NCBI GenBank assembly: GCA_052170415.1
Contig: JBQNAO010000003.1
Span: forward strand, 43,400-107,399
DNA from: Ottowia sp.
Lineage (GTDB): Bacteria > Pseudomonadota > Gammaproteobacteria > Burkholderiales > Burkholderiaceae_C
Reading direction: 5' to 3'
DNA: 64,000 bases
In this document: one piece after another, positions 22,891-24,777 of the stretch
How positions within the stretch are numbered: the stretch's first letter is position 1
How the letters are laid out: each line of letters opens with the position of its first letter
Made by a program: the position numbers and the translations under genes
Notes under the pieces: model-generated
What the model saw: the letters and a program-made list of their open reading frames with translations, nothing else
Database searches by the model: none
What the model was told of the DNA's origin: nothing

Positions 22891-23011
22891 GGCGTGCAGT
22901 GGGATGGGCAGTGATGGCCCCTCAAGAATCAGGGGCGCGAGGGATTCGGGTCAGTGGCGCACCTTCTTGTGCAAGGTGCGGCCTCTCATATGCGCGGTGC
23001 TGCCGAGCGGT

Positions 23012-24184
23012 TTATTCGGTTTTGCTGGCGCGCTTGAAGTTGTTGTCGTCCTGACAATGGTGCAGGGCATCAAAAACGATGCCTGCAATGCGCGACAAAT
23101 GATCGGGGTGACTCAACAAAATGCTATTGCCCATGCCCAGTTGCAGGCCGGCGCGGGCGATTTCGTGTTTGCGCTGATCGGTTAATGGCACGCACACGAA
23201 AATGCAGGGCTGACGCTTATCCGCTTGATAGCGGATTAACCACCGATTGACTTTGCCTTGATACAGGATGCTGTAATAACTTTCGGTGTCCTTGGCCGAA
23301 ATTTGTGCGTCATTACCCAGAATTTCCTTGACTACTTCAAACAAGCGTCGCTCGGTATAAGTGGTCACAATGCGAGGGTTGTCGGCGTCAACGATATCAG
23401 CGGTCGGATCATCTTTTTCTGTGGCGGGCGGTGTTTCGGTGGCAGGGGTTTCAATTGCTGTAGCTGCGGGAGATTTTGCAGACAGACCCGAAACGACCAT
23501 GTTGCTGACGGAGCGTTCAACGGCTTGTTTGACCAAGGGTGCGATGCTTTCCAGAAATTTGGCATTGAATTGCCGCTGAATATTGGCCCGGCCTGCCACA
23601 TAGCGGACGAACTCGATATCCGGCTCGCGCAAGCTGGTGCTGATGACCTCGGTGAAGGCATTCAGATAGACCGTCTCTTCAGCCAGGGTTCGCAAGGCTT
23701 CGGGCTGGAACTCGTCGTGTCTGAAGCGGCGCAGTCGCTGTAAGAAAGTGGTGTCCATGTTGCCGAAATCCACGGTCAGGAAAGGCGTCGTGTCCATCAC
23801 GTTTTTGTTATTCAAATCCGTGAAAAATCTCCATTCTTCGCCGTTGGTAATGGCTGCAATCGTGACTTCGGGCGTTGCGTTGAAATAACGCGAAAGCTGC
23901 GGACAATGGTTGCTCAGCTTTTCGCTATGTCCCTTGGCCTCGATAAACATGACCGGAACGCCGTGACAAAAAAGCGCGTAATCAACACGCTCGCTGCTTT
24001 TGGCGCCTGGAAAATCAGCGCCATATTCCGCTTTGACCTTGGTCGGATCGAATGGAGAAAATCCCAAAATATCCAGCAAAGGCAGTATCAGGGCTTGTTT
24101 GGTTGTTTCCTCTGTGGTGCAATGAGTTGCGACATTTTTGACATGCTCGGCGTGTTTGCGCATGCGATCGGTAAAGCCGTCCAT
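23012..24184 (-). CDS. PD-(D/E)XK nuclease-like protein (type I restriction HsdR N-terminal-like domain) with an uncharacterised C-terminal domain
   Basis: Start at the internal ATG (MDGFTDRMRKH...). ETTKQALILPLLDILGF...ERVDYALF...VMFIEAKG gives a D...ExK signature. The gene is markedly AT-richer than its flanks. Confidence 0.7.
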   Translation of the reverse strand: MDGFTDRMRKHAEHVKNVATHCTTEETTKQALILPLLDILGFSPFDPTKVKAEYGADFPGAKSSERVDYALFCHGVPVMFIEAKGHSEKLSNHCPQLSRYFNATPEVTIAAITNGEEWRFFTDLNNKNVMDTTPFLTVDFGNMDTTFLQRLRRFRHDEFQPEALRTLAEETVYLNAFTEVISTSLREPDIEFVRYVAGRANIQRQFNAKFLESIAPLVKQAVERSVSNMVVSGLSAKSPAATAIETPATETPPATEKDDPTADIVDADNPRIVTTYTERRLFEVVKEILGNDAQISAKDTESYYSILYQGKVNRWLIRYQADKRQPCIFVCVPLTDQRKHEIARAGLQLGMGNSILLSHPDHLSRIAGIVFDALHHCQDDNNFKRASKTE

Positions 24185-24344
24185 TTCTTCTCCTTTGAGG
24201 GGTTTGCATTTGTCAGCGTTGCGCGGGTTTGAGCCCTGTTTTGCTGAGGAGTGTATTTTCTGCGCTTTTGTGCTTTGTTCTCGTTTTTGGCGCAGTTTGC
24301 GTGGAGTTGCGCAGCAAAAAGCTGGGTGCAAGCGGAGAAGAGGC

Positions 24345-24385
24345 CAAAAAAGAAGGCCGCCTTGCGGGAAGCAAAAGCGGCCTTC
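24345..24385 (-). terminator. Rho-independent terminator after tRNA-Leu
   Basis: Minus strand reads GAAGGCCGC-TTTTGCTTCCCGCAAG-GCGGCCTTC then TTTTTTGG. Confidence 0.8.
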
Positions 24386-24399
24386 GGTGGCAGTGGATA

Positions 24400-24777
24400 T
24401 GGTGCCCGGGGCCGGAATCGAACCGGCACGCCTTGCGGCCAGGGATTTTCTTCCCCGCTACGGCTTTCGCCGCCGGGGGCGGCCCGCTGGGGGCTGCCGC
24501 CCGTTTGGGGGCTGGAGCACGCCTTCGCCCTGGCGCGGCCTTTTCTTTCAAAAAGGCCGCGCTGTAGGCGCCCGCCGTCTGCTCTCTACACCTTCGCACG
24601 GATCGCGCCCGAGGGGGCGCGGGGCCGTTTGCTTGGCTCGGCGTTGGCTCGATCCGGGCCGCCGAAGGCGGGGGATCAGGGCGTTCGCCGAGTTTGACGG
24701 GCTTCACTTCACACGCTTTCCGCGTGAAGGCTCAAATTGTTCAAGTCCCTTGTGTCTACCGATTTCACCACCCGGGC
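24400..24777 (-). tRNA. tRNA-Leu(UAA), split gene: 5' exon 24777..24743, 3' exon 24449..24400
   Basis: Exons join to GCCCGGGTGGTGAAATCGGTAGACACAAGGGACTT|AAAATCCCTGGCCGCAAGGCGTGCCGGTTCGATTCCGGCCCCGGGCACCA. The 7-bp acceptor stem is perfect, the anticodon stem is AGGGA/TCCCT, the loop is CUUAAAA, the variable arm is long, the T loop is TTCGATT, and CCA is encoded. Confidence 0.88.
24450..24742 (-). ncRNA. Group I intron (IC3-like) inserted between U34 and A35 of tRNA-Leu(UAA)
   Basis: 293 nt. Begins GAACAAUUUGAGCCUU, where the internal guide GAG can pair with exon CUU through a U-G wobble. Contains CAAACUCGGC...GCCGAGCCAAGC, GCGAAGGUGUAGAGAGCAGACGG and GGCGGCGAAAGCCGUAGCGGGGAAG, ending in G. 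These elements resemble the cyanobacterial tRNA-Leu intron core as recalled. Confidence 0.82.

Follow-up and report, generated by a model that had tools for sequence, protein, structure and literature searches.

The 64-kb stretch of DNA analysed here (the window, 64,000 nt in all) carries on its minus strand, at 24400..24777, a real tRNA-Leu(UAA) gene that is interrupted by a 293-nt group I intron. The insert is of the subgroup IC3 type and holds no open reading frame (ORF), and the source lineage is an Ottowia-like member of the Comamonadaceae. Group I introns in tRNA-Leu genes have already been described for many beta- and gammaproteobacteria, and the window presents a correct but ordinary instance of them.

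The initial annotation had read two tRNA halves in the sequence, 24777..24743 and 24449..24400 with a gap of 293 nt, and had expected them to join into a canonical tRNA-Leu(UAA). ARAGORN agrees on both counts. The minus-strand sequences of the halves are GCCCGGGTGGTGAAATCGGTAGACACAAGGGACTT and AAAATCCCTGGCCGCAAGGCGTGCCGGTTCGATTCCGGCCCCGGGCACCA, and once joined they are called as an 85-nt tRNA-Leu(UAA) whose cloverleaf has a class II long variable arm, A73 and an encoded CCA. When introns are permitted, the same program finds the same tRNA-Leu(taa) in the genomic sequence and places ...gactt and aaaat... on either side of a 293-nt intron. The insertion point lies between U34 and A35 in the anticodon loop; exact excision restores the 7-nt loop CUUAAAA, and the predicted ligated-exon junction reads GGGACUU-AAAAUCCC (the hyphen marks the junction). 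It had also been predicted that a bacterial-mode tRNA finder would miss the gene, and default ARAGORN indeed reports 0 tRNAs across the whole 64-kb window. The split gene stands alone, the tRNA count elsewhere in the window being 0.

The insert folds as a group I intron (Table 1; P, paired segment; J, joining segment; L, loop). When the published structure is carried to the window through the seed Bba346.Leu.3Cg, all core pairs (P3, P4, P6, P7, and P8) form, and an unconstrained minimum-energy fold of the intron recovers P2, P3, P4, P5, P6, P6a, P8, and P9 unguided. Folding had been proposed as a check of P3–P9, and these nested helices, together with the pair counts on 94 sequences given below, support that architecture. 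Five core elements, J3/4 AAA, J4/5 GAA, J6/7, the bulged A of P7 and J8/7 AAGGC(R), correspond to invariant columns of alignment A1 (see below) and match the Azoarcus seed. The landmarks first picked out by eye are likewise present, namely GAG at intron positions 10–12, CAAACUCGGC, GCCGAGCCAAGC, GAAGGUGUAGAGAGCAGACGG, the GCGAAAGC hairpin and the terminal G, which closes the 3′ sequence ...GGGGAAG at 24450. P7 would be the guanosine-binding helix, and a P10 pairing between the guide UUU and A35–A37 of the 3′ exon is possible. The extra length of this intron is confined to the P5, P6a, P8, and P9a hairpins. The P5 hairpin (24647..24682) has a conserved internal loop and a CUUCGG tip, and its extension runs about 14 nt beyond the length seen in most relatives, while the 13-bp extension of P8 is perfectly paired and missing from most relatives. 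The P8 extension was also considered as a repeated element, which is ruled out by its single copy in the window.

Independent recognition comes from a covariance model, R1, built from 12 curated seeds of the Williams alignment, which were re-aligned and given the published consensus structure, projected by majority vote (Williams, 2020, bioRxiv 10.1101/2020.01.27.920355). The seeds comprise the Azoarcus tRNA-Ile intron, two tRNA-Leu(UAA) introns (Leu.3Ug, at least one of them of the cyanobacterial type) and introns of Arg, fMet, Met, Thr, Lys, and Ser tRNAs; the proteobacterial Leu subfamily seed was deliberately excluded. Across the window, R1 has one match only (minus strand, 24450..24744; 98.3 bits, E 7e-31). 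This match is full-length (model positions 1–227 of 227) and ends at the predicted terminal G on the 3′ side and one exon base before the 5′ splice site on the 5′ side. Because it is the only match in 128 kb of strand searched and has so low an E-value, the resemblance of the insert to a group I intron lies far beyond chance. The initial proposal of a group I intron between U34 and A35 is thus upheld by ARAGORN, the U·G pair of P1, the P3–P9 core, the R1 match and the terminal G.

The intron belongs to a widespread family. One genome per GTDB species was scanned with the 20-mer AAGGTGTAGAGAGCAGACGG, which spans P6′, J6/7, P7, and the start of P3′, and this yielded at least 120 loci, each of a different species; further species exist. 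Every named record is beta- or gammaproteobacterial, and the other metagenome-assembled genomes (MAGs) are labelled only Proteobacteria or Pseudomonadota. The genera among the matches listed are Achromobacter, Bordetella, Variovorax, Ottowia, Cupriavidus, Hydrogenophaga, Rhodanobacter, Lysobacter, Pseudoxanthomonas, Stutzerimonas, and Pseudomonas, joined by members of the Steroidobacteraceae. Some of the matches lie in complete genomes, such as those of Ottowia massiliensis (NZ_LT964854.1), Xenophilus aerolatus (CP166702.1) and Pseudoxanthomonas koreensis (NZ_CP169056.1). According to intron-aware ARAGORN, the host gene among these matches is tRNA-Leu(UAA) in at least 69 and tRNA-Leu(CAA) in at least 44, and 7 are miscalled or cut off. 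The rarity in proteobacteria that the initial annotation had implied is contradicted by these numbers and by the status of Leu.3Ug as one of the four classical types in a catalogue of 5292 intron-split bacterial tRNA genes (Williams, 2020). End-to-end BLAST alignments link the insert to more than 100 relatives. UAA- and CAA-type genes are split at the identical loop position by introns of 213–278 nt among the matches listed, and the window intron, at 293 nt, is longer than any of these.

The two host genes differ in the pair at the 5′ splice site, which was scored sequence by sequence rather than by column, the 5′ end of the MAFFT alignment being ragged in the P1 region. This pair is U·G in all 70 UAA-type genes (69 relatives and the window) and C-G in all 44 CAA-type genes. 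The C-G group is the Leu.3Cg class, which is confined to Proteobacteria (Williams, 2020). Here, a Watson-Crick C-G pair replaces the U·G wobble, and splicing of this type is putative; examples are L001, L012, L048, L063, and L082, of which L063 and L082 also hold an intact tRNA-Leu(CAA) within 8 kb. Because the exons of UAA- and CAA-type genes are very similar, the sequences suggest either gene duplication with a change of anticodon or movement of the intron between tRNA-Leu genes. In four loci from Thiotrichales and Porticoccaceae MAGs (L070, L071, L094, and L103), ARAGORN reports tRNA-Phe(AAA) or tRNA-Thr with odd splice sites. Since the junction reads CTTAA-ACAATT..., at least the three “Phe” calls seem to be tRNA-Leu(UAA) genes with the splice site misplaced by 2 nt.

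Helix conservation was assessed in alignment A1, which contains the window, Bba346 and 92 non-redundant relatives (94 sequences). The published structure gives standard pairs in 91.8% of pair cells, as opposed to 35–44% when partners are slid by 1–3 columns, and none of 500 shuffles reached any of five pairing measures. Changes on both sides of a pair were found for 24 pairs, mostly in P2, P6a, and P9a, whereas P3, P4, P6, P7, and P8 are nearly invariant: paired cells amount to 99.8% in P3, 97.9% in P4 and 100% in P6, P7, and P8, although the invariance of P7 is partly by construction, its 5′ strand lying inside the search motif. Of 138 columns with a conservation of 90% or more among relatives, 127 are unchanged in the window. 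The 11 departures comprise two changes on both sides of a pair (A-U to G-C in P8 and A-U to C-G in P9, four columns together), a one-base register shift (the L2 loop GAAAG), a difference at the foot of the P6a helix and two junction variants near P9 that are also present in other IC3 seeds.

The surroundings of the split gene are shared with close relatives. The flanking aminotransferase and ABC-transporter genes are about 82% identical in nucleotide sequence to those of Ottowia massiliensis (L089) and stand in the same order around the split tRNA, and this synteny extends to a third lineage (L160, L147, L130, L169, and L135). The introns of O. massiliensis and the third lineage occupy the same site and measure 234–235 nt. 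The closest relative is a contig from the metagenome scan, L152, with about 94–97% identity in the flanking genes and 96.9% over tRNA and intron. L152 and the window do not differ in either exon or anywhere in the catalytic core; every difference falls within distal P6a, the P8 extension or the P9a loop. Across the sister lineages, the acceptor stem reads GCCCGGG/CCCGGGC in the window as opposed to GCCTGAG/CTCAGGC in O. massiliensis and the L160 lineage, so that pairs 4-69 and 6-67 differ in both bases, one of which lies in the 5′ exon and the other, beyond the intron, in the 3′ exon. Because these two compensated pairs span the exons, the two halves evolve as one tRNA. Such co-evolution is indirect evidence, and the best available, that the precursor may be spliced. 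Function is further supported by the terminator-like hairpin that follows the gene and by UUA codons, which are rare in the window genes but do occur. As a separate observation, L152 (1429-1805) lacks 4 nt, GGCC, on the 3′ strand of the P8 extension, a loss that would break the hairpin and could reflect either a true deletion or a fault of the assembly.

Very probably, then, the window holds a split tRNA-Leu(UAA) gene whose IC3 intron follows the standard two-step group I pathway. In this scheme, the host tRNA gene is chromosomal and belongs to an Ottowia-like betaproteobacterium, and the precursor would be transcribed from the minus strand and end at a hairpin followed by six U residues. The intron would fold into the P3–P8 core including the P3/P7 pseudoknot, and the guide UUUGAG would pair with C32-U33-U34 and the first three intron bases to form P1, placing the U34·G wobble where cleavage would occur. 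The attack after U34 would then come from a free guanosine bound in P7. The terminal G would subsequently take the same site, A35–A37 would pair with the guide UUU to form P10, and the exons would be ligated to yield a mature tRNA reading UUA (and UUG).

Several points weigh against this proposal. The exons, their boundaries, the core fold, family membership, synteny and exon co-evolution are direct observations, whereas the chemistry, as well as splicing in this organism, is extrapolated from the family. A simple scan for a sigma-70-like consensus promoter of the split tRNA found none, and a second, uninterrupted tRNA-Leu(UAA) beyond the 64-kb window is possible. The L2 loop (24716-24720) reads GAAAG in the window and in L152, as opposed to the GAAA tetraloop of the 93 other aligned sequences, and the receptor-like loop in P8 has CCAGGG as its 3′ strand, in place of the UAUGG found in many relatives and in the canonical 11-nt motif. 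Because of these two deviations, the tertiary contact between L2 and P8 may be weakened; it might also be that the GAAAG loop, together with the 13-bp P8 extension, represents a rewired L2–P8 contact in the window lineage. Lastly, the Rfam model RF00028 (Intron_gpI), which the initial annotation had put forward as a test, gives no match at its gathering score in the whole window and nothing at E<=10 on stretches of 801 or 306 nt around the intron. The output on these stretches is sub-threshold noise only, such as Bp2_287 with 25 bits against a threshold of 70. Since seven homologous loci searched at E<=1 yield no Intron_gpI match either, the failure lies with the model rather than with the window sequence, and it is read as a false negative, a gap in sensitivity that provides no evidence against the intron. 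None of the 12 RF00028 seeds is bacterial, and a model seeded with bacterial tRNA and transfer-messenger RNA (tmRNA) introns found 20% more split tRNAs (Williams, 2020).

The silence of RF00028 is also the one point that would suit an unrelated GC-rich insertion, or an assembly artefact, with a chance likeness to group I introns. The probability of this is negligible and the idea is refuted by the covariation of the helices, by the R1 match and by the comparison with L152, where an independent metagenome assembly has the same insert at the same site with 97% identity; R1, an independent model, places its ends at the terminal G and one exon base before the 5′ splice site, and the alignments with more than 100 relatives run from end to end. 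More serious, yet still quite improbable, is a relic gene, that is, a genuine group I descendant that splices poorly while an uninterrupted tRNA-Leu(UAA) elsewhere does the decoding. The extra G in L2, the departure of the P8 loop from the canonical 11-nt motif and the record length of the intron among the matches listed would fit such decay. UUA accounts for 6 of 11,803 codons (about 0.05%) in 30 confident window ORFs, so weak selection on tRNA-Leu(UAA) could follow, and the view of the genome is that of the 64-kb window. Decay of this kind is hard to reconcile with the 100% identity of window and L152 in exons and catalytic core, which contrasts with their divergent peripheral loops, with two compensatory acceptor-stem pairs spanning the exons in sister lineages, with a syntenic position in at least three lineages and with core junctions that are all intact. 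Moreover, a further, intact tRNA-Leu(UAA) is absent from all 120 of the 8-kb loci.

A milder departure from the standard pathway would be an intron that is spliced in vivo only with the help of a host protein or chaperone and is not truly self-splicing. A long periphery or weak tetraloop-receptor contacts often signal dependence on helpers, as is generally known (Hausner et al., 2014, PMC3984707). The departures of the window intron at L2 and P8 point in this direction, but folding without help is favoured by its core, in which conservation is complete and GC content very high. The bacterial IC3 tRNA introns of Azoarcus and Anabaena, to whose type it belongs, self-splice in vitro. Dependence on a helper is considered unlikely.

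The closest described relatives of the window intron are the proteobacterial tRNA-Leu introns of the Leu.3Ug and Leu.3Cg types, represented by the seed Bba346.Leu.3Cg (Williams, 2020). Bba346 lies at the same site, position 3 of the anticodon loop, and is collinear with the window from P1 to P9. Both share the guide UUUGAG, P3 CCCGUC/GGCGGG, P7 GAGCA/UGCUC, J8/7 and the L9 GAAA hairpin. They differ in the anticodon and the splice-site pair, which are C34 (CAA) with C-G in Bba346 and U34 (UAA) with U·G in the window, and extensions in P5, P6a, P8, and P9a make the window intron exceed Bba346, which measures 240 nt with three exon bases counted, by 53 nt. The P7 sequence GAGCA/UGCUC, which is common to tRNA-Leu(CAA) introns, marks the proteobacterial subfamily in which the window intron falls.

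The cyanobacterial and plastid tRNA-Leu(UAA) intron (Anabaena/Nostoc; seeds Sel1 and Ncf2) has the same host tRNA, U34/A35 site and IC3 architecture, and shares with the window the core strings CAAA(C/U)UC(A/G)G, GAGCCAAG, GAAGGUG(C/U)AGAGA, GACGG, and GCGAAAG. In contrast, P7 reads GACUA/UAGUC in the cyanobacterial seeds, P3 of the window is rich in C and G (CCCGUC/GGCGGG), the peripheral helices show no sequence relationship and the host of the window intron is a betaproteobacterium. The same core is found in the IC3 intron of tRNA-Ile(CAU) from Azoarcus sp. BH72, for which crystal structures exist (Aol6 seed). It aligns with the window in J3/4 AAA, in P4, in the GAGCCAAG segment (end of P4, P6, and J6/6a), in the GGUGUAGAGA segment (end of P6, J6/7, and start of P7), in J7/3 GAC, in J8/7 AAGGC(A/G), in the bulged A of P7 and in the GAAA tetraloops. 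Azoarcus reads AAGGCA UAGUCC where the window has J8/7 AAGGCG and the P7 3′ strand UGCUCC; relative to its P7, GACUA/UAGUC, two pairs are changed on both sides. Further differences of the Azoarcus intron are another host tRNA, insertion at loop position 5, a short P9, canonical 11-nt receptors and a length about 90 nt shorter. Within the gammaproteobacteria, the group I intron in the tRNA-Leu(UAA) gene of the subsurface isolate Pseudomonas sp. D0715 reportedly self-splices in vitro. It is reported to be about 231 nt long and to occupy the same site as in the window; Pseudomonas and Stutzerimonas species are among the matches of the genome scan. A review of the field contains no discussion of proteobacterial tRNA-Leu introns (Hausner, 2014, PMC3984707).

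It could equally well be true or false that the window genome, and those of many of the at least 69 carrier species, have no tRNA-Leu(UAA) other than the split gene. If so, decoding of UUA there would depend on RNA self-splicing, and many annotated genomes would wrongly seem to lack tRNA-Leu(UAA), because default tRNA finders and RF00028 both miss the gene. The main value of the finding is for annotation, as genomes of this kind can look devoid of a UUA-reading tRNA. The initial annotation had extended this to UUG as well; its statement stands for UUA and fails for UUG, which tRNA-Leu(CAA) also reads. For biology, the window adds one more lineage, with the longest intron among the matches listed, to a known and widespread IC3 tRNA-Leu family and opens no new question.

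Table 1. Features of the split tRNA-Leu(UAA) gene and its intron (window coordinates).
Feature	Position	Strand	Description and basis
5′ exon, tRNA-Leu(UAA)	24743..24777	-	Acceptor 5′ strand GCCCGGG, D arm, anticodon stem 5′ strand, C32 U33 U34; ARAGORN
Group I intron, 293 nt, IC3-like bacterial tRNA type	24450..24742	-	G1 to omegaG (24450); R1 model, pair counts, fold
3′ exon, tRNA-Leu(UAA)	24400..24449	-	A35 A36 A37 A38, anticodon stem 3′ strand, long variable arm, T arm, acceptor 3′ strand, A73, CCA; ARAGORN
P1	24731..24745	-	Exon C32-U33-U34 and intron GAA (CUU-GAA, hyphen at the splice site) pair with internal guide UUUGAG (24736..24731); third pair U34·G, wobble at the 5′ splice site
P2 hairpin	24707..24729	-	CUUCACGCG-GAAAG-CGUGUGAAG; folds; 8 of 9 P2 pairs changed on both sides among relatives
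P3 5′ strand CCCGUC, followed by J3/4 AAA (24693..24695)	24696..24701	-	Pairs with GGCGGG 24571..24576
P4 CUCGGC/GCCGAG, J4/5 GAAC and extended P5	24637..24692	-	Pair counts, fold
P6 CC/GG, J6/6a AAG and extended P6a hairpin (24596..24632)	24591..24636	-	Pair counts, fold; P6a co-varies among relatives
P7 5′ strand G-(A bulge)-GAGCA, followed by J7/3 GAC	24580..24586	-	Pairs with UGCUCC 24514..24519
P3 3′ strand GGCGGG	24571..24576	-	P3 and P7 cross and form the core pseudoknot
P8	24526..24570	-	CGCC/GGCG base, receptor-like internal loop (CCUACAG/CCAGGG), 13-bp extension GCGCGGCCUUUUU-GAAA-GAAAAGGCCGCGC; fold
J8/7 AAGGCG and P7 3′ strand UGCUCC	24514..24525	-	Invariant in 94 sequences
P9 CCCCC/CGGGG, P9a hairpin, P9b hairpin	24450..24511	-	P9b with GAAA tetraloop (GGCGAAAGCC), then AAG to terminal G 24450; pair counts, fold
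Intrinsic terminator-like hairpin, then UUUUUU	24341..24385	-	Starts 14 nt past the CCA end; fold

The terminator-like hairpin downstream of the 3′ exon was overlooked by a simple terminator scan, its loop exceeding 8 nt, and was revealed by folding. It has a folding energy of -27.2 kcal/mol (z = -5.35), and none of 200 shuffles was as stable. As for the wider neighbourhood of the family, tRNA-Gly(GCC) and/or tRNA-Cys(GCA) genes lie within 600 nt in 20 of the 69 UAA-type loci and in 0 CAA-type loci among the matches listed. The order tRNA-Gly(GCC)/tRNA-Cys(GCA)/tRNA-Leu is the arrangement of the Escherichia coli glyW-cysT-leuZ operon. Because these 20 loci resemble it, the split gene at loci beside tRNA-Gly/tRNA-Cys seems to be the housekeeping copy.

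Between the tRNA terminator and the aminotransferase gene, the window contains a stretch of about 1.45 kb with lower GC content (22891-24340). It includes an ORF of 439 amino acids (23012..24331, minus strand) with a type I restriction enzyme R N-terminal domain (Pfam HSDR_N, E 2e-14). L152 and O. massiliensis lack the stretch, as apparently does the L160 contig, which gives it the look of an insertion that arrived recently next to the tRNA gene; neither an integrase gene nor convincing flanking direct repeats were seen there.

Phage-borne copies of the intron were considered and are ruled out, as phage matches cover only the 50 nt that resemble the 3′ exon. In the single phage inspected, Acidovorax phage AP1 (L204, OM049504.1, 2490-2550), 50 nt directly past the integrase gene are 96% identical to the 3′ exon of the window, and the bases upstream read GGGACTCAAAATCCCC, the uninterrupted anticodon arm of tRNA-Leu(CAA). 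By its sequence, this stretch looks like a putative phage attachment site (attP) for the intronless tRNA-Leu(CAA) of a Comamonadaceae host. Similar matches, again to the 3′ half only, occur in Xanthomonas, Acinetobacter, and Aeromonas phages. Nine predicted viral contigs from IMG/VR (L121-L129) carry the intron core motif, several of them near the contig end. Instead of introns encoded by phages, these may represent predicted prophages that have a split tRNA-Leu gene at their border. Finally, on a megaplasmid of Mycetohabitans endofungorum (L203, NZ_CP062179.1, 601-946), a coding sequence annotated as “hypothetical protein” (WP_104078081.1) runs antisense across a homologous split tRNA-Leu and is probably spurious.

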